In this document: piece after piece, positions 25,842 through 60,616 of the stretch | How positions within the stretch are numbered: the first letter of the stretch is position 1 | How the letters are laid out: every line of letters begins with the position of its first letter | NCBI GenBank assembly: GCA_964361595.1 | Contig: CAYIAX010000001.1 | Span: 32,100-96,099 of the forward strand | From: an uncultured Candidatus Saccharibacteria bacterium | Lineage (GTDB): Bacteria; Patescibacteriota; Minisyncoccia; UBA6257; 2-01-FULL-56-20 | Length of the DNA stretch: 64,000 bases | Direction: 5' to 3' | Made by a program: the position numbers and the translations under genes | The notes under the pieces: generated by a model | Databases searched by the model: none | What the model saw: only the letters and a program-made list of their open reading frames with translations | Told to the model about the DNA's origin: nothing

Positions 25842-27083
25842 ATGGACGGCGAGACAAGAAACTGTCAGAACTGTAAAAATATTTTCACGATCGAGCCGGA
25901 AGATTTTTCGTTTTACGAAAAAATCAAAGTCCCGCCGCCGACGTTTTGCTGGCTATGCAGACGGCAACGCCGTTTGGCATGGAGGAATTATCTTAATTAC
26001 TATAAGCGAACCTGCGGCCTAACGAATGAACCGATAATTTCTTTATACGCTCCCGACTCGGGAATTACCGTTTACTCTCCGAAAGCATGGTTTTCGGATG
26101 ACTGGAATGCGCTTGATTATGGTCGTGATTATGATTTTTCGAAACCGTTTTTCGAGCAATATGCCGAACTTCTCCGCAGCGTTCCTAAGCCGGCGATGGA
26201 TAACGATGATGGATTAGCAAGCGTTAATTGTATGTATACGAATGATTTTGCCATGAGCAAAAATTGTTATTTGGTTATTAAAGCCTGGAAGGTTGAGGAT
26301 GTGATGTATTCGTTTTGGGTGGTAAGCGGCCGTGATTTTATGGACGCCCATATAAGTTTTGGCAAGGATGAAGGCAATTACGAAACCGTGAACACAGAAC
26401 ATTGTTATCAATGCCGTTATACTTATGATTCGCGCAGTTGTTCCGATTGCGCTTTTGTTTACGACTGCCGCAATTGCGACCACTGTTTCATGTGCACGGG
26501 ACTGCGCGGAAAATCTTATTATTTCAAGAACAAGGAGGTTGGCAAGGAACAGTACGAAAAGATCATCAAGGAATACTCCCTGCACTCTTATTCGGGAACC
26601 GAGCGGGCAAAGAAAGAATTTGAACCAATCCTAAATAACCATCCGCGTAAAGCTTTGCGCATGGTTAATTGTAAAAATTGTTTCGGTGACCTTGTTTTCA
26701 ATAGTAATAATTGTAAATACTGTTTTGTGGTGTTGGGCAGCGAAAATTACAAATACTGCAATTATGCCGATGGAGCAAAGGATGCCTATGATTCAGATGC
26801 GGGCGGAGGCGGAGAACTCATGTATGAGACCGATTTAAGCGCGTTCTCATCCCGCGTTATCGGCAGTTTTCTTGCCTGGCAGTGCCAAGATTCCTATTAT
26901 CTTACTCACACTTATAGGAGCCGCGATTGTTTCGGTTGTAGCGGCTTAAAAGATGCGCGGTATTGTATCTTGAACAAGCAGTATACTAAAGAAGAATACT
27001 TCGGAGCTTATGCCGAAAATCAGGCGGCACATGGACGAAATGCCCTATGTGAATTCACGGGGCAGGAAACACGCATTTGGTGA
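25842..27083 (+). CDS. cysteine-rich repeat protein with N-terminal C4 zinc-ribbon (paralog 1), leaderless start
   Basis: 413 aa. N-terminal CQNC ... (21 aa) ... CWLC. At least 5 repeats of a roughly 21-aa unit carrying S-x2-C-x2-C-F. Extended -10 box TGgTATACT at 25827-25835 lies 6 nt before the ATG. Confidence 0.6.
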   Translation: MDGETRNCQNCKNIFTIEPEDFSFYEKIKVPPPTFCWLCRRQRRLAWRNYLNYYKRTCGLTNEPIISLYAPDSGITVYSPKAWFSDDWNALDYGRDYDFSKPFFEQYAELLRSVPKPAMDNDDGLASVNCMYTNDFAMSKNCYLVIKAWKVEDVMYSFWVVSGRDFMDAHISFGKDEGNYETVNTEHCYQCRYTYDSRSCSDCAFVYDCRNCDHCFMCTGLRGKSYYFKNKEVGKEQYEKIIKEYSLHSYSGTERAKKEFEPILNNHPRKALRMVNCKNCFGDLVFNSNNCKYCFVVLGSENYKYCNYADGAKDAYDSDAGGGGELMYETDLSAFSSRVIGSFLAWQCQDSYYLTHTYRSRDCFGCSGLKDARYCILNKQYTKEEYFGAYAENQAAHGRNALCEFTGQETRIW

Positions 27084-27537
27084 TTATCCGCCAATCGAGC
27101 TTTCTTATTTTCCCTATAACGATACGGCGGCCCAGTCGCTTTATCCGCTAACGAAAGAGGAAGTCCAGGCGAATAATTTTAAATGGTCCGAACCGAATCG
27201 AGCGGAAGATTTATCAGGTGCAATTCCGGCCGAAGAACTGCCGGACAGCATTTTCGACGTAGGAGACGATATCCTCCAGAAAACGATCATTTCTAAATCA
27301 TCAAACCGAAAATACCGCATTACCCGACAGGAACTGCTTTTTTACCGCAAATATAAAATTCCACTTCCTCGGGAATCTTTTTTCGAGCGGTATGAAAGGC
27401 GAAGTCGTATGGCAACCTCGTTCCGTTTCTATGAAAGAAAAAGTGACAAGTCGGGAGAACCGATCATAACTTATTATCCACCGGAAGCTCCGCAAAAAGT
27501 ATGGAGTATTGATGAATATAAAGCCGAATTTGAATGA
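27040..27537 (+). CDS. hypothetical protein overlapping the 3' end of paralog 1 in the +1 frame (independent gene or frameshifted extension)
   Basis: The frame-1 ORF is open from 27010. It contains FYRKYKIPLP, which resembles the FYEKIKVPPP motif of the paralog N-termini. Confidence 0.3.
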   Translation: MPYVNSRGRKHAFGDYPPIELSYFPYNDTAAQSLYPLTKEEVQANNFKWSEPNRAEDLSGAIPAEELPDSIFDVGDDILQKTIISKSSNRKYRITRQELLFYRKYKIPLPRESFFERYERRSRMATSFRFYERKSDKSGEPIITYYPPEAPQKVWSIDEYKAEFE

Positions 27538-28148
27538 ATATGAACTCCGAAACCAGAAACTGTCAGAACTGTAAAAATATTTTCACGATTGAACCAGAAG
27601 ATTTTTTGTTCTACGAAAAAATCAAAGTCCCGCCGCCGACTTTCTGTCCGCAGTGTCGGATGCAGCGGCGGATGGCATTTCGGAACGAAAGGACGTTATT
27701 CAGGCAAAAGTGCGCTCTGACCGGAAAAGATATTATCAGCTGCTTTTCCCCTGAATCGAAAATGGTGGTTTATGATCGTGATGTTTGGTGGAAAACCGAC
27801 TGGGATCCCTTGACGGTCGGAGTCCAGTACGATTTTAACATCCTATTTTTCCTTCAGTTCAAAAAACTCATGGAACGAACTCCGATGCCGGCTGTATTCA
27901 GCGGCAGATCGGAGAATAGCATCTATGGAAATTATATCAGCGACTTTAAAAATGCCTATTTAGTATCGGCATCGAACCTGCATGTGCAGTTTAGGGGTCG
28001 GGAACCAGGAGCCTGGCACCAGGTACCAGAATACCAGTTTGCACTTTCATGGCGATGCTCCGTGTCCGAATGAATTTGAAACCAGCTATGCGCCGGAACG
28101 CCAGGAGACTGTTTATTGTGAGCAGTGCTACAACGCAGAGATTATTTA
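27534..28148 (+). pseudogene. degraded paralog 2 of the cysteine-rich protein (N-terminal domain in frame 0, homologous C-terminus in frame +1, repeat region deleted)
   Basis: The first 33 aa are 32/33 identical to paralog 1 (nucleotides 27547-27642 against 25852-25947, about 88% identical). Frame 0 stops at 28073. Frame +1 (27964-28148) encodes HGDAPCPNEFETS ... CEQCYNAEII, which is homologous to the paralog-1 C-terminus. Confidence 0.45.
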
Positions 28149-28216: not shown

Positions 28217-29161
28217 ATGGTATACGACATTTATTTTCATGATGATTTTGACGGGCGCGCTTCGGCGGCGGTGCTTTGGGATTATTTAAAAAAACGGGGA
28301 GACGATATCAAGGGTTTTTATACAGTTGATTATGCGCTCGAACCGCGCTGGCCGAAGTTCAAATTCCCGCGGCCGGCGATTATTGTGGATTTTCTTTACC
28401 ATCCCAAAGCCGCGATGTGGTTCGATCACCATGTGATGCCGTTCCTTTTGCCTGCCTGGAAAAAATCTTTCCGGCGCACGAAAAATATGCATTGGGATTC
28501 GCGCTATGCTTCCTGTTGCCATTTTATTATGGACGAGCTTACGAAGTACCTTGGTTACCGCCCGCCGGTGCATATCCGCGAATTGGCGAAATGGCTAGAC
28601 GTAATTGACGGCGCGAATTACAAGTCGGCCAGGCAAGTGATTGAAATGAAAGAAGCGCCGATTCAGCTCGCGTATTTCATCGAAGGCAGGGGCAAAAAGG
28701 GCGATCCGAAGACGTGGCTCATAAAATTGTTGGCGGAAATGCCTTTAGGGGAGATCGTCAAAGTGCCGCGCGTAGCAAAAACCATAAGCCGGATCCGCAA
28801 AGATCTCACAAGCTCGCTTGCATACTACCGCGCGCATTCCGAAGTAAACGGCAAAACGGTTTTTACCAATGTTACCGAACACACCGGGCTTAAGGTCAGG
28901 TTTGCCCCTTTTTATCTTTTTCCAACTTGCGTTTATAGTCTTACGCTCAAGCGTGAGCGGGGCGGCAATTATCATTTGACTGTGGGCGCAAGCCCCTGGC
29001 GAAGAGAAGAGAATGGATTTCACATCGGCAAATTCATGCATGAGCGTTTCGGCGGCGGGGGACATAAAAACGTCGGCGGCGCTGATATCCAGAGTGGAAA
29101 ACGGGCCTTGGCCATTACACGCGAAATTATAAAATTCTTGCTTAAGCGTTATGGCTGGTAA
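28217..29161 (+). CDS. DHH/DHHA1-family phosphoesterase (NrnA-like nanoRNase / pAp phosphatase)
   Basis: 314 aa. HDDFDG (motif I), FDHH (DHH motif), GGGH in the DHHA1 domain. Confidence 0.6.
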   Translation: MVYDIYFHDDFDGRASAAVLWDYLKKRGDDIKGFYTVDYALEPRWPKFKFPRPAIIVDFLYHPKAAMWFDHHVMPFLLPAWKKSFRRTKNMHWDSRYASCCHFIMDELTKYLGYRPPVHIRELAKWLDVIDGANYKSARQVIEMKEAPIQLAYFIEGRGKKGDPKTWLIKLLAEMPLGEIVKVPRVAKTISRIRKDLTSSLAYYRAHSEVNGKTVFTNVTEHTGLKVRFAPFYLFPTCVYSLTLKRERGGNYHLTVGASPWRREENGFHIGKFMHERFGGGGHKNVGGADIQSGKRALAITREIIKFLLKRYGW

Positions 29162-29756
29162 AAAAAAATTTTATGCGTATTTTGTCCCAGGCAAAGGACA
29201 AGGTATAGCTGATAACTGGGCGGATTGCGAAACCAAAGTGAAAGGCGTGCCGAATGCTCGTTATCGTGCGTTCGGTGATCGGAAAGCCGCGGAAGTTTGG
29301 CTCCACGGAGGAGCCGCTTATGGGAAAAGATCGGCGCCGAAGCTTTTGCCGGGAGTGTATTTCGACGCCGGCACCGGCCGGGGTAAAGGGGTTGAAATTA
29401 AGGTAACGGACGCGCGCGGAGAGAATCTTTTGCCCGTCGTGCTGCGGAGAAAGCAACTTACGCCGTTTGGAACATATGAACTTGCGAATGTTACTAATAA
29501 CTACGGGGAACTTTTTGCTTGCAAAGCGGCGATGCAAATTGCGCTGAAGCAGGAAAGCCGCCGCGTTTTCGGCGACAGCGCCCTCGTTGTGAAATACTGG
29601 TCGCGGGGAGTTTATAAAAAAAATCAGCTGGGCTCGGAAACGATTAAACTGATCAAAGCCACGGCTCGGGTTCGGAAGCAATTTGAAACAAAAAGAGGCA
29701 AATTGGCGCTTATCTCCGGTGGTCATAATCCGGCGGATCTAGGTTTTCACCGCTAA
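29151..29756 (+). CDS. rnhA: ribonuclease HI with N-terminal RNA/DNA hybrid-binding domain
   Basis: 201 aa. N-terminal KKFYAYFVPGKGQGI ... VKGVPNARYRAF ... AEVWL matches the RNase H1 / caulimovirus HBD fold. The catalytic residues are D (YFDAG), E (NNYGELFA) and D (GDS). Confidence 0.7.
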   Translation: MAGKKKFYAYFVPGKGQGIADNWADCETKVKGVPNARYRAFGDRKAAEVWLHGGAAYGKRSAPKLLPGVYFDAGTGRGKGVEIKVTDARGENLLPVVLRRKQLTPFGTYELANVTNNYGELFACKAAMQIALKQESRRVFGDSALVVKYWSRGVYKKNQLGSETIKLIKATARVRKQFETKRGKLALISGGHNPADLGFHR

Positions 29757-29766
29757 AATCACACCG

Positions 29767-29794
29767 TTGACTTTTTTGCTTTCCGGCGTATAAT
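29767..29794 (+). promoter_or_regulatory. promoter TTGACT-N16-TATAAT for rnpB
   Basis: TTGACT at 29767-29772, TATAAT at 29789-29794. Confidence 0.55.
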
Positions 29795-29800
29795 AGCCAC

Positions 29801-30408
29801 GGGTACTTCAGGCGATTACTCCCGGCTTAGCCGGGAGAGGAAAGTCGGGACACTCACTGATTTCTTTTAAGAAAGATTAATCCTTAAAAGAGACCGGTCA
29901 AAAAGGTATCCGCTAACGGCGGACCACCGCAAGGTGAAAGGTGCGAACAGAGACGCCGAACATCGAAAGGTGTGAGGCGCCCCCCCCGGTTTATACGAGG
30001 GGGGTGAGCGAAGTTATAAGAAGGGGTCCTCCTTCGCCGCAAGGCTTCGAAGGATCTTCGCGAAGGCTTCGATGAAACGGCAAAATCCTTACCGAGTGCA
30101 AGGCCGTACTCCAGTGCGTAGCACTGGAAATTCGAAATTCGAATATCGAAATTCGAAACAATAAACCGCTTTGGAATTTGTTTCGTGCTTCGGATTTAGA
30201 ACTTCGTGCTTCCAACGCTGCGCATTGGTTTGTGCCGCTTGAGCCTGAGAGCAATCGAGGGCCCAGATAAATGATCGCGCCGGTTTACTCGAGTTTACGA
30301 GAAAGTTGATACCCGCCTTCGTCCTTCGGACTTTGGCGAGGTCTCAATTTACTAGCTCGCTAAGCTCGCAGTAAATTGGACAGAATCCCGCTTACGAAGT
30401 GCCACGAT
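29801..30408 (+). ncRNA. rnpB: RNase P RNA (bacterial type-A-like, expanded to ~608 nt)
   Basis: P1 pairing GGUACUUC / GAAGUGCC. P3 hairpin CCCGGCUUAGCCGGG. P4 5' strand GAGGAAAGUCGGGAC and P4 3' strand ACAGAAUCCCGCUUAC. CR-II/III-like AAGGUGAAAGGUGCG-AACAGAGACGCC. Terminator at 30409-30443. Confidence 0.78.
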
Positions 30409-30443
30409 CCTCACATCTGATTCAGGTGTGGGGATTTGTTTTT
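30409..30443 (+). terminator. intrinsic terminator after rnpB
   Basis: CCTCACATC / GGTGTGGGG stem followed by ATTTGTTTTTGG. Confidence 0.55.
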
Positions 30444-30533
30444 GGATAAAAAGCAAACAGCAAACACAAAGCCAAGCCGGACCATGCAGGAATAAAAAAA
30501 CCGGCTGCAAGGGCAACCGGGTAAGTTAGATGG

Positions 30534-31025
30534 CTAGACGGGAATATGGCAGAGCGCCCGCTCGAAAATGATCTTCTCAACCAGATCGCGCTCCAGGTCT
30601 TCATAACGAGAAGGATCGTAATACCCCTCGATTCTATTCTGCCGAACGACGAAGCTGTCCGGGTGGAATAAAACCGTGAAAACCAAAGCGCCGGGATGAG
30701 CGCGAGAGCTGATCTCAAAGCTTCCGGGGCCGGGTATCCACGCGTAAAGCCCGACAAAACCCGGTTCGACAAGATTGATCTGGATGCCGGATTGGCTTTG
30801 CGCAACTGCCTCGAGGAGCTTATTGCGTAGCCGGACGAGCAGCTTCCGCAGTTCAGTTTGCTCGTCCTGGCGGCGCAAGTACTCGTTCCACTGCCGGTCG
30901 TGTCGCGCCATTGCCGCGGCCATTTCTTGATCGCTCAATCGCCGCCGTCGCCGCTCATGTAAACCCCACGTCAGGCTCGCCGCAGTGAGGAGCGCCATCG
31001 CGGCAGTTCCTAAAAGCGAAAACAT
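30534..31025 (-). CDS. membrane-anchored hypothetical protein, high GC
   Basis: Best start is the ATG at 31025, with a GAGAGGTGGGAAG Shine-Dalgarno. N-terminal TM/signal segment. GC about 58%. Confidence 0.45.
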   Translation of the reverse strand: MFSLLGTAAMALLTAASLTWGLHERRRRRLSDQEMAAAMARHDRQWNEYLRRQDEQTELRKLLVRLRNKLLEAVAQSQSGIQINLVEPGFVGLYAWIPGPGSFEISSRAHPGALVFTVLFHPDSFVVRQNRIEGYYDPSRYEDLERDLVEKIIFERALCHIPV

Positions 31026-41671: not shown

Positions 41672-41684
41672 ATAGGCTGTTAAT

Positions 41685-41790
41685 TCAAAATTTAAAAATC
41701 AAAAATCAAAATTCAGGTAATTAACTTCGTTAATTTTTTATTTTGAATTGTCATTTTGCATTTTGAGATTTGCATTTTGCATTAATTAAG
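41685..41790. repeat. ~100-bp AT-rich imperfectly palindromic element, copy A
   Basis: About 92% identical to 44221-44326 in direct orientation. A partial third copy lies at 48084-48112. Confidence 0.7.
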
Positions 41791-42549: not shown

Positions 42550-44217
42550 ATGACTGCCGGTCTTTTAGAACTCGCCATCGTTGTTTTAATCGCCGCCTTC
42601 TTGGGCATTTTGGCCAGAACTCTGCGCCAGCCAATTATTCTTGCCTATCTCGTAACCGGTGTGATCATCGGTTACTTCGGGCTTTTCAATCTCCGTGATC
42701 AGGCCACCTTCCAGATTTTTGCCGACTTGGGCATCATGTTCCTCTTATTCTTGGTCGGCTTGGAGATTAACTATACCTCGTTGCGCCTCGTCGGCCGGTC
42801 CGCGCTCATCATTGGAGTCTCGCAGGTGATTTTTACCACCGGTATAGGCTTTTTAATCGCGCGACTTTTCGATTTTTCGTTGCTCCATTCGGCTTATATC
42901 GCTTTGGCGCTCACATTCTCCTCTACGATCATCGTGGTCAAACTGCTTTCCGAAAAAAAGGATCTAAGCAGTTTGTACGGAAAAATCGCCGTGGGCGTCA
43001 TGCTCTTCCAGGATTTCATCGCGATTCTGATCCTTGTTACCCTGGCTGGTATCGAAGCGGGCAGGGGTTTCTCTTGGAGCAGTCTTGCGGTCGCGCTTGT
43101 GAAGGGACTGTTGCTCTTTATCGCGATGGTTTGGCTGGGCCGCAAATTTTTACCGCATGTATTTGATAAGATCGCCCGTTCGCCGGAATTGTTGTTCCTC
43201 ACGACCCTGGCTTGGGTATTTCTCCTGGCTGCTTTGGCCGCCGAAATCGGTTTTTCGATCGAGATCGCGGGATTTTTAGCGGGGCTCGCGCTCGCGAACT
43301 CCGCGGAACATTTCCAGATCGCGAATCGCGTGCGTCCGCTGCGCGACTTCTTCATTTTGATCTTTTTCGTTATTTTGGGGTCGTCCATTGTCTTGCAGGA
43401 CTGGAGTGGCATCACGAAGCCGATTTTGGCCTTCTCCGCTTTCGTCATTATCGGCAATCCCTTGATCGTGCTCCTCATTATGAGCGCTTTGGGTTATCGC
43501 AAGCGCACAAGTTTTTTGACCGGCGTGACGGTGGGGCAAATTTCGGAATTCAGTTTGATTTTGGTCGCGCTCGGTTTGCGCGTGGGCCATCTTAACTCCA
43601 GCATCGTTTCCTTGGTAACCGCCGTCGGCGTGATTACGATCATTATTTCCGCCTACATCATTACGCACGGCGACAAAATTTTCCGCTTCCTCGCGCGGCC
43701 GCTTTCACTCCTCGAGCGCAAACAAACCAAGGAAGTGAGTTCGCTGATCGGGGAATTCAAAAAATCTTTCATTTTGATCGGCGCTCACCGCACCGGCCAG
43801 GCAATCGCGCTTTCCCTGCCGGCCAAGGATCTCTTGGTCATCGAATTCGATCCGGAAGTCATACACATGTTGAAGCGGCATAATCTCGATTATATTTTCG
43901 GCGATATTGCCGACCCGGAAGTTTTTGCGAAAGCTAATTTCGAGACTGCCAAATTGGTTATTTCCACCAACCCGGATTTAAACGACAATCTGGGGCTTTT
44001 GACTGAACTTAAGAAGCTGGCCAAGCGGCCAAAAATCATCGTCCGCGCCGATGATGAAAAAGAAGCGGAAATTCTTTACAAAACAGGGGTGGATTATGTG
44101 CTTTTGCCTAATTTCACGGCCGGGCAATATCTGGCCAAAACCATTGCCGTTGACCCCGAAATGCAGATATTGGAGCAGCTGCGGAAAAAGGATTTGGAGA
44201 TGCTGCGCGCACATTAA
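42550..44217 (+). CDS. CPA2-family monovalent cation:proton antiporter with C-terminal TrkA-N (KefB/YbaL-like)
   Basis: 555 aa. 12-13 TM segments followed by a Rossmann GxGxxG (ILIGAHRTGQAI) regulatory domain. Confidence 0.8.
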   Translation: MTAGLLELAIVVLIAAFLGILARTLRQPIILAYLVTGVIIGYFGLFNLRDQATFQIFADLGIMFLLFLVGLEINYTSLRLVGRSALIIGVSQVIFTTGIGFLIARLFDFSLLHSAYIALALTFSSTIIVVKLLSEKKDLSSLYGKIAVGVMLFQDFIAILILVTLAGIEAGRGFSWSSLAVALVKGLLLFIAMVWLGRKFLPHVFDKIARSPELLFLTTLAWVFLLAALAAEIGFSIEIAGFLAGLALANSAEHFQIANRVRPLRDFFILIFFVILGSSIVLQDWSGITKPILAFSAFVIIGNPLIVLLIMSALGYRKRTSFLTGVTVGQISEFSLILVALGLRVGHLNSSIVSLVTAVGVITIIISAYIITHGDKIFRFLARPLSLLERKQTKEVSSLIGEFKKSFILIGAHRTGQAIALSLPAKDLLVIEFDPEVIHMLKRHNLDYIFGDIADPEVFAKANFETAKLVISTNPDLNDNLGLLTELKKLAKRPKIIVRADDEKEAEILYKTGVDYVLLPNFTAGQYLAKTIAVDPEMQILEQLRKKDLEMLRAH

Positions 44218-44220
44218 ATG

Positions 44221-44326
44221 CAAAATTTAAATATCAAAAATCAAAATTCAGGTAATTAACTTCGTTAATTTTTTATTTTTACATTGTCATTTTCCATTTT
44301 GATATTTGCATTTTAAATTAATCATA
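44221..44326. repeat. ~100-bp AT-rich element, copy B (direct repeat of 41685-41790)
   Basis: See copy A. It bridges the kef stop and the start of the next gene. Confidence 0.7.
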
Positions 44327-47476: not shown

Positions 47477-48085
47477 ATGCCGCAGCAAATCGTCATCATT
47501 CACGGCGGAGACACATTCGAAACCTACGAGGAGTATTTGAAGTTCTTAAAAAGCTACGACATAAATTTCGAGCGGCTGCGCCTAGGGCGGCAGGATTGGA
47601 AAAAGAATTTGCGCGATGTGCTGGGATCCGGCTACGAGGTGATTGCGCCCACAATGCCCAGTATCAGGAATGCGAAATATTTGGAGTGGAAAATCTGGTT
47701 CGAAAAATTACTTCCATATCTACAGGAAGAAGTTATTTTAATCGGCCATTCCTTGGGCGGCACGTTTTTAGCCAAATACCTGGCCGAGAACAAATTTCCG
47801 AAAAGGCTGAAGGCGGTTTTCCTTGTAGCTCCCTGCTATGACGGCGAGGGCACGGATTATTCACTGGCGGATTTTTCCCTGCCGCAAAGCTTGGCTGGGT
47901 TAGGTGAGCAAGCGCCCAAACTTTTCATTTACCACAGCGAGGACGATAAAGTAGTGCCGTTTCCAAATCTTAAAAAGTTCCAGGCTCAATTGCCTAACGC
48001 AGTCGTCCGCGTTTTTACCAACCGCGGCCACTTCAATCAGGAAGAATTGCCCGAACTGGTAGGGGATGTAAGAAATTTAATGTAA
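47477..48085 (+). CDS. alpha/beta hydrolase (YdeN/RBBP9-like serine hydrolase)
   Basis: 202 aa. VIIHGG, nucleophile elbow GHSLGG, a C-terminal His. Confidence 0.6.
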   Translation: MPQQIVIIHGGDTFETYEEYLKFLKSYDINFERLRLGRQDWKKNLRDVLGSGYEVIAPTMPSIRNAKYLEWKIWFEKLLPYLQEEVILIGHSLGGTFLAKYLAENKFPKRLKAVFLVAPCYDGEGTDYSLADFSLPQSLAGLGEQAPKLFIYHSEDDKVVPFPNLKKFQAQLPNAVVRVFTNRGHFNQEELPELVGDVRNLM

Positions 48086-48206
48086 AATGCAAAAATCAAA
48101 GATCAAAATTATCCGGCTACGAAATACAAAATCCGCCAGCTGGCGGATACGAATATACTAAATTTCGTATATTTGTAATAAATTTGTATTTCGTAGCAAT
48201 AGCAAT

Positions 48207-60280: not shown

Positions 60281-60616
60281 ATCCGGCGACGAATCGCAAG
60301 CAGCGCGCTTCGATTCATCGCAGCCGTCCCCGTGGGAATTCATTTCGGAGCATCCGGAGCTGATCCGTTTCATCAATGGATGCTAGTCTAGTGATCGGCA
60401 GCGATACAACATCGCTGCCTTTTTGTTGCAAGAAAGTAAGTCGCTTGTATCTTTTTTAGCAACAACATAAGGACAACTATCAATTTGTACCTTCGGCGCG
60501 AACGGCTTGCCCGCTACTGGCAGTAGGCGGTAATCCGCATAATATTCGCGCACAGCTTCGGTTGCGCGTTTTTTATTGCTAATGTGCTTTGTGTTTACGT
60601 AATTAAATCGAGAAGC

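Follow-up and report, generated by a model that had tools for sequence, protein, structure and literature searches.

A 611-nucleotide RNase P RNA with three expanded, TTCG-rich peripheral arms in a predicted member of Patescibacteria

Additional sequence within the RNA subunit of RNase P has been met in several bacterial groups. Vioque is said to have found, in 1997 (Nucleic Acids Res 25:3471, cited in PMC2858038), tandem repeats of the short tandemly repeated repetitive (STRR) type inside rnpB, the gene for RNase P RNA, of heterocyst-forming cyanobacteria; these reportedly consist of heptanucleotide units, lie in P12 and come from families dispersed over the genome. Expansion segments have also been described in P12 of Thermodesulfatator indicus and in P9, P16.1, P18.1 and P19 of Methylacidiphilum infernorum and the Planctomycetes-Verrucomicrobia-Chlamydiae (PVC) group (PMC9945441), and the P12 segment of T. 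indicus is excised in vivo, which yields a fragmented RNA about 70 nucleotides (nt) shorter (PMC9945441). Expansions in bacteria are described as accumulating on the side away from the tRNA interface, with P19 variable in length, and RNAs of type B combine a P5.1 hairpin with the lack of P6 (PMC12974513); for A-type RNAs a mean of 374 nt and a range of 250-550 nt are quoted (PMC7191817). For bacteria of the candidate phyla radiation (CPR), the rRNA genes are described as rich in insertions, of which at least some encode homing endonucleases (PMC11270868). Full-text searches that joined RNase P RNA with Patescibacteria or CPR terms found no publication. Here we describe the oversized rnpB gene of one such bacterium, found in a 64-kilobase (kb) stretch of contig CAYIAX010000001.1 (positions 32,100 to 96,099; this whole stretch is called the window below), and compare it with the RNase P RNAs of its relatives and with the systems mentioned above.

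The gene was recognised in a permissive Rfam mode, below the gathering score of 100, in which the model RF00010 aligned end to end with 29800-30410 of the plus strand (model positions 1-367, 43.6 bits, E=4.9e-12), while the scan of the whole window at the gathering threshold gave no RF00010 match (43.6 vs 100 bits) and a tRNA as its single match. The first-pass annotation of this DNA had proposed an rnpB of about 608 nt, some 200-250 nt longer than usual, to be checked with Rfam models: the full-length match upholds the identity, in that check as well, and the RNA is indeed oversized, the exact length being 611 nt, which is about 237 nt over the A-type mean and outside the quoted range of bacterial RNase P RNA. 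Its low score is explained by the large insertions. Weak Rfam scores inside the gene for mir-59, mir-1010 and CRISPR-DR9 are chance hairpin matches; the permissive scan gave no intron-like match there, and the expanded arms have no coding capacity. The gene and its expanded parts are as follows.

29800-30410, plus strand: rnpB, the RNase P RNA gene, type-A-like, 611 nt (RF00010, core pairing, synteny)
30009-30071, plus strand: expanded P14 region, 63 nt against about 27 in relatives (fold, anchor distances)
30111-30228, plus strand: expanded arm of P16/P17, a single irregular hairpin 118 nt in length (fold, anchor distances)
30127-30158, plus strand: heptamer array, 4.6 copies of GAAATTC, that is (TTCGAAA)n, on the 5' strand of the distal P17 arm (Tandem Repeats Finder)
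30175-30216, plus strand: degenerate heptad array on the 3' strand of the distal P17 arm, AATTTGT TTCGTGC TTCGGAT TTAGAAC TTCGTGC TTCCAAC (lag-7 identity)
30280-30379, plus strand: expanded arm of P19, a hairpin of 100 nt with a cUUCGg cap (-48.2 kcal/mol, z=-7.1)

The comparison set comprises ten other RNase P RNAs from Patescibacteria, 282-491 nt long, of which eight were scored with RF00010 (from loci L030, L037, L063, L072, L129, L130, L132 and L133) and two located by conserved motifs (L135 and L138); together with that of the window, 11 RNAs were aligned with MAFFT E-INS-i, and 13 core helix segments were defined on the window sequence. Measured between conserved anchors, the P12-P14 segment has 133 nt in the window and 73-95 nt in the relatives, and the P15-P17 segment 136 nt as compared to 28-48 nt in most of them. 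The segment of the 3' strand of P2 and P19 (from J18/2 to the 3' strand of P4) takes 116 nt, against 20-58 nt in the relatives and 134 nt in L133, and that from P4 to L8 takes 74 nt, as in L129, with 158 nt in L072 and 42-73 nt in the others. The excess length is thus confined to discrete peripheral blocks, and the P14, P16/P17 and P19 arms are all rich in TTCG/CGAA, each with local duplications.

Folded at minimum energy, 30100-30235 forms a single long hairpin (-51.1 kcal/mol, z=-5.5, with no shuffle equally stable), closed by CCA/UGG and GUGCGUAGC/GCUGCGCAU. The earlier reading had placed a tandem 7-mer of 4.5 copies inside a long closed helix, and both parts of it were recovered: UGCGUAGC (30115-30122) pairs with GCUGCGCA (30217-30224) in the minimum-energy fold, and Tandem Repeats Finder reports 4.6 copies at 30127-30158, with period 7, 84% matches and the consensus GAAATTC. 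In the TTCG register the 5' strand of P17 reads TTCGAAA, TTCGAAT, ATCGAAA, TTCGAAA, and its identity at lag 7 is 0.72 vs 0.32 in shuffles (p<0.0005). The opposite strand is periodic as well, with a lag-7 identity of 0.51 vs 0.26 (p=0.001) and an exact repeat of TTCGTGCTTC at a spacing of 21 (3x7); the lags next to 7 are not enriched on the strands of P17. These strands, of 43 and 42 nt, form 31 predicted pairs whose coordinate sums stay at 60338-60340, which is a constant register, and their CGAA/UUCG blocks of 4-8 base pairs (bp) are divided by small internal loops.

Two replicate assemblies (L001 and L002) contain the same 611-nt gene with an identical heptamer array and a single nucleotide polymorphism, G30259T in P18, and a third contig is identical over the first 180 nt of rnpB. 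As independent assemblies agree, an assembly artefact is very unlikely and the copy number of the repeat is not visibly polymorphic. The first-pass annotation had offered the array either as a lineage marker or as a recent slippage event. The latter is disfavoured, because recent one-sided slippage would give an unbalanced arm, and here the strands are balanced, both heptad-periodic and in constant register, and the array is identical in two assemblies; the former is borne out, the P16/P17 arm being lineage-specific and absent in the alignment from all ten relatives examined.

The same short motif marks all three expansions. TTCG occurs 12 times in the gene as compared to 4.95 ± 1.9 in dinucleotide shuffles (p=0.001), CTTCG eight times against 1.2 expected and TTCGAA four times against 0.5 expected; each of the 12 TTCG falls within an expansion (P14, P17 or P19), the core being free of them, and the relatives have 0-3. 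The P14 region holds four of these motifs and the exact 10-mer AAGGCTTCGA twice (at 30041 and 30063, spacing 22). In P19, by eye, a helical module of about 9-10 bp is doubled on both strands (UUUAC(U)CGAG x2 vs CUCGC..UAA x2), and a 16-nt stretch of the P17 3' strand has 88% identity with the apex of P19. Exact 10-mer repeats outside the array number two in 611 nt, where a rough estimate gives about 0.2 expected. A second copy of any inserted block was found neither in the 64-kb window nor in 137 other loci, where only chance matches of 11-13 nt appeared; the sole match beyond these is that of the hairpin between P5 and P7, described below, with L129. The GAAATTC array was likewise not found elsewhere in the window, in which other period-7 arrays have different units, and a dispersed repeat family of the STRR type was rejected within the window, where the array is single-copy.

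Of the 11 tandem arrays in the window that have at least three copies, 7 are of period 7. The idea that this genome is generally prone to heptamer microsatellites is weakly supported, as the other arrays of this period belong mostly to one dispersed AT-rich element of about 100 nt. It has two intergenic copies, 41682-41783 and 44216-44314, composed of heptad-phased A-tracts (AAAATCA-type), a GGTAATTAACTTCGTTAATT hairpin and then complementary ATTTTGC/ATTTTGA heptads; its folds are weak (z=-1.6 and -0.2) and its unit is unlike GAAATTC. A third AAAATCA-type array is situated at 48084-48108.

Beneath these expansions the catalytic core of the RNA is intact, as the specificity core appears to be. 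Its elements, with the hairpin between P5 and P7, are listed here.

29842-29849, plus strand: 5' strand of P4, AAGUCGGG, with U29845 bulged and the partner at 30387-30393 (pairs kept in 11/11)
29856-29898, plus strand: hairpin between P5 and P7, in the position of the type B P5.1, 4+11 bp with an 11-nt loop (fold, alignment)
29954-29979, plus strand: P12, CGCC / GA / ACAUC-GAAA-GGUGU / GA / GGCG (fold, aligned with the GAAA-capped P12 of relatives)
29980-30004, plus strand: P13 hairpin, 25 nt (fold, hairpin of about 26 nt at the same position in relatives)
30243-30262, plus strand: P18, with tandem G.A pairs and the GNRA tetraloop GCAA (six tested pairs kept in 11/11, compensatory variants)
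30387-30393, plus strand: 3' strand of P4, CCCGCUU, within the conserved ACAGAAUCCCGCUUA (RF00010, pairing across 11 RNAs)

Over the 13 helix segments and 11 RNAs, 572 of 606 cells (94.4%) hold a canonical or G-U pair, against 31-43% when the 3' partner is moved by 1-3 columns, and the relatives without the window give 93.8%. Helices P1, P2, P5, P7, P8, P9, P10/11 and P15 are present and paired, with double compensatory changes in P1, P2, P5, P8, P9 and P18. P4, a long-range helix formed between the conserved GGAAAGUC... and ACAGAA...GCUUA blocks, is compensated likewise: it keeps 7/7 pairs in 11/11 sequences, and its pair 29847-30389 is G-C in six and C-G in five of them, a full compensatory swap. 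The conserved blocks GAGGAAAGUC, AGGUGCGAACAG, GAUGAAACGGCAAAAUCC, CAGAUAAAUG and ACAGAAUCCCGCUUA are present, and no conserved single-stranded block is missing. G30259T is the only difference of the window from the two other assemblies of the same population; it turns a U.G wobble of P18 into a U.U mismatch, in a pair that is C-G in most relatives.

P12, P13 and P14 are seen as three predicted hairpins at the expected positions of the specificity (S) domain; the inner pairs of the closing stem of P12 align and pair in most relatives and the two outermost in about half or fewer, and P13 and P14 are too divergent between lineages for covariation. The middle one of the three is the C8...G6 element that had been taken for a second, GC-rich insertion: the hairpin exists, at 29980-30004, and it is P13 at its normal 25 nt. 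Three features had in turn been passed over in that annotation, namely the P14 expansion, the 100-nt P19 arm and the P5.1-like hairpin. The GGU at 30227-30229 occupies the position of the L15 GGU motif, where relatives carry GGAGUGCC-type sequences, and the minimum-energy fold pairs G30227-G30228 with C30111-C30112. A partner for P6 was not identified between P5 and P7, where the linker consists of the hairpin and CAAAAA, no dedicated pseudoknot search having been made. The hairpin itself is present in nearly all Patescibacteria RNAs examined (L129, L130, L132, L133, L135, L138, L030, L037 and L072), and its long form is common to the window and L129, at 90.6% identity across 32 nt. The hairpin is followed by a conserved linker, UUAAAA(A)GGUA, and a pseudoknot partner for P6 was not evident in these RNAs.

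The eight scored relatives reach 62.7-98.6 bits with RF00010, all below the gathering score of 100; standard Rfam annotation would therefore miss rnpB throughout this group, the window included. A scan of genome contigs with the P4 pattern GAGGAAAGTCGGGNCNC returned, among the matches listed, mostly unrelated lineages with the G variant (Ilumatobacteraceae and others); the relevant Patescibacteria loci among these matches were L030, L037, L063, L067 and L072, with rnpB in four of them and not in L067.

The boundaries of the gene are marked by two further elements.

29767-29794, plus strand: sigma-70-type promoter of rnpB, TTGACT at 29767-29772, a 16-nt spacer and TATAAT at 29789-29794 (11/12 consensus matches)
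30406-30446, plus strand: intrinsic terminator, with a stem of 14 bp (30406-30436) and then TGTTTTTGGA (stem and T-run)

The promoter is the sole promoter-like site in 29650-30600, and its end (29794) is six bases 5' of P1, which places the predicted transcription start at about 29800-29802, on the first bases of P1. A period-7 array of AAACAGC, with 3.4 copies, occupies 30448-30470, directly 3' of the terminator.

Relatives have peripheral expansions of their own. L037 has a P16/17 hairpin of 102 nt (z=-4.1), L133 a P19 of 117 nt (z=-8.0) and L072, behind P5, an insert of about 100 nt (z=-5.7), at sites like those of the window, with stable folds and with sequences that are all different. Peripheral hairpin growth is thus a group-wide tendency, of which the window RNA is the extreme among the eleven. 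Three expansion segments, those of P17 and P19 in L133 and the one after P5 in L072, have in common a hairpin module, UCCUGAG-N5-6-CGAAGGA, whose helix contains tandem G.A pairs.

We consider it probable that the window carries a functional rnpB of a Paceibacteria-like CPR bacterium, in which three peripheral arms grew by motif duplication or slippage and have been retained as neutral or mildly stabilising extensions. About 200 extra nt would then be accounted for by three lineage-specific segments (the P14 region, P16/P17 and P19), beside the P5.1-like hairpin common to the group, and the segments would occupy peripheral positions directed away from the tRNA-binding face. The arms may have grown via local duplication or replication slippage of short self-complementary TTCG/CGAA motifs: the core of TTCGAAA, TTCGAA, is palindromic, so that an array, or an array with its complement array, lengthens a hairpin and leaves the other folding undisturbed. 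With the strands of P17 balanced and in register, growth should have been either symmetric or old enough for compensation. Symmetric growth might proceed, for instance, through slippage in one arm which is copied to the other via template switching at a quasi-palindrome, and template switching at quasi-palindromes is a known mechanism in bacterial mutagenesis. We infer that the mature RNA most likely keeps the arms, with an effect that would be neutral or mildly stabilising, and they may be tolerated in a small-population symbiont lineage in which insertions into rRNA genes are already known. Judged from sequence, the RNA is predicted to cleave the 5' ends of pre-tRNAs together with RnpA.

Several points weigh against this explanation. 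The arm sequences are without counterpart in the relatives, and the arm structures are thermodynamic predictions without covariation, the arms being beyond covariation testing because the databases hold no closer relatives; their retention in the mature RNA is a presumption. The heptads of the 3' strand of P17 could merely follow from pairing with a periodic 5' strand, and imperfect matches of 12-16 nt between the arms are, by a rough estimate, near chance and marginally above it. The RF00010 score is far below the gathering threshold, though the insertions explain it and the relatives are also below, and the unidentified P6 and the partly paired GGU predicted in L15 should be added to this list.

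The main rival would be that the long arms are intervening sequences, cut out post-transcriptionally (for example, by RNase III or RNase E), with a mature RNA of 2-4 paired fragments, and we regard it as unlikely. Long duplexes are substrates of RNase III, and the P19 arm (about 40 bp, z=-7.1) and the P17 arm are long duplexes; excised intervening sequences of rRNA are known to leave fragments joined by base pairing. A precedent in RNase P RNA itself is given by the P12 segment of T. indicus (PMC9945441), but descriptions of most known bacterial expansions (P16.1, P19, P9) treat them as belonging to the RNA (PMC9945441), and the P17 arm, broken by an internal loop of 1-3 nt every 7 bp or so, would make a poorer RNase III substrate. 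That all three arms are excised and this RNase P RNA works as several non-covalent pieces would be, in our assessment, similarly improbable. One may also suggest that the arms are functional, as a platform to which a protein peculiar to the lineage, or a factor from a host or partner, would bind, or as a substitute for lost struts such as the P6 pseudoknot. The regular 7-nt spacing of CGAA/UUCG on both strands, the identity of the array across independent assemblies and the expansion of relatives at the same three sites would agree with it, and another lineage is documented in which P5.1 was gained as P6 was lost (PMC12974513). Yet the arms are not conserved in any relative, the sequences differ wholly between lineages, no candidate partner is known, and the 7-bp period mismatches the helical repeat, so that one unit would point to another side of the helix than the next; we find such a function quite unlikely.

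A small palindromic mobile element inserted in rnpB, of the kind of miniature inverted-repeat transposable elements (MITE) or repetitive extragenic palindromes (REP), would also bring blocks that form hairpins, and the window does hold a dispersed, hairpin-like AT-rich heptad element (41682-41783 and 44216-44314); this element, however, differs in unit and sequence, the blocks in rnpB are single-copy in the window and the fetched loci, and terminal inverted repeats or target-site duplications are not evident in them. This very improbable reading was rejected on the lack of second copies of the inserted blocks in the 64-kb window and the 137 other loci. The score of just 43.6 bits, together with the fact that no rnpA/rpmH motif was found in the 64 kb of genome examined, might finally suggest a misassembly or a pseudogene in decay, the function of RNase P being provided by a further copy of rnpB or by a protein-only enzyme, but two replicate assemblies have the same 611 nt, of which the first 180 recur in a third contig, the conserved regions and every core helix are intact with P4 compensated, and the gene has a near-consensus promoter, a terminator and the same position as in relatives, which makes this hardly credible. 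An arm-bearing functional rnpB remains the explanation that we prefer.

The gene order of pgk, a 314-aa protein, an RNase-H1-like protein and rnpB recurs among the relatives, and L030 (Saccharibacteria) likewise has the RNase-H-like gene some 0.9 kb upstream of its rnpB. The RNase-H1-like protein, of about 200 aa with an RNase H1 N-terminal (Cauli_VI) domain, is encoded at 29151-29756. Such a gene precedes rnpB, immediately or at a short distance and in the same orientation, also in L030 and L129-L138, which are Paceibacteria-like genomes and one Saccharibacteria genome. Synteny with the window was not found at several pgk-anchored loci (L139-L141), nor at L137, and metagenome contigs scanned with the RNase-H-like protein gave four distant loci, with rnpB in none. 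The 201-aa protein beside rnpB is also encoded on contigs from well H43 of the Hainich aquifer (0.1 and 0.2 µm filter fractions), and the names of its homologs and of those of pgk in the source databases indicate Patescibacteria/Paceibacteria; searches with flanking proteins found no closer relatives in the databases, the best identities being 57% (RNase H-like) and 63% (pgk). From these neighbours the host is predicted to be an uncultured ultra-small groundwater bacterium of the Patescibacteria (CPR), Paceibacteria-like. Three consecutive open reading frames at 25842-28073, of 413, 175 and 179 aa, separate pgk from the 314-aa gene, which are neighbours in relatives, and so look like a lineage-specific insertion; two of them begin with a shared cysteine-rich motif ETRNCQNCKNIFTIEPEDF.FYEKIKVPPPTFC, and one was tested against Pfam, without a match.

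With 611 nt vs the quoted 250-550 nt (PMC7191817), the described RNA widens the range of sizes known for RNase P RNA in bacteria. The gathering threshold missed every Patescibacteria rnpB scored, and automated annotation would hence wrongly call RNase P RNA absent from such genomes. In the P17 arm a helix of an essential ribozyme would have been lengthened by tandem duplication of a self-pairing motif with the fold unbroken, which bears on the origin of expansion segments in RNase P RNA and rRNA; were the arms excised after all, the same repeat-built arm would be a snapshot of the birth of an expansion or intervening segment via amplification of a self-complementary heptamer.

In comparison with class A (RF00010), the window RNA is alike in P1-P5, P7-P11, P15, a P18 with a GNRA loop, the P4 pseudoknot and the predicted hairpins P12, P13 and P14, and unlike in its 611 nt, the sub-threshold score, the P5.1-like hairpin, the P6 that was not identified and the extended P14, P16/17 and P19. 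With type B of Bacilli and Mollicutes it shares the P5-P7 hairpin and the lack of an evident P6, but it keeps the predicted P13 and P14 and a type-A-style P18, and type A is the best-scoring member of the clan; on P5.1, P6, P13, P14 and P18 taken together, an assignment to type B was rejected. The rnpB genes with STRR in cyanobacteria resemble it in having tandem short repeats inside the gene, whereas the array of the window sits in P16/P17 and is faced on the opposite strand by a matching degenerate heptad array. The insertions of CPR rRNA genes (PMC11270868) concern the same group of organisms and again put extra sequence within essential structured RNA genes, but the arms of rnpB are hairpins of 60-120 nt, non-coding and without an intron-like Rfam match. 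The earlier claim that repeat-driven expansion of this ribozyme is unusual thus overstated its novelty, being preceded by the cyanobacterial STRR and by the P12, P16.1 and P19 segments (PMC9945441, PMC12974513): the window RNA is an extreme case of an expansion already known for RNase P RNA, and neither the class nor the mechanism is new. Like the RNAs of T. indicus and the PVC group, it bears lineage-specific peripheral hairpins on an otherwise type A RNA, some of them in the P15-P17 region and in P19, and unlike them it has three large expansions together, of about 200 nt, with shared TTCG-rich repeats; what is new is the size of 611 nt, the presence of three large expansions at once and their common repeat signature, including heptads on both strands of one arm.

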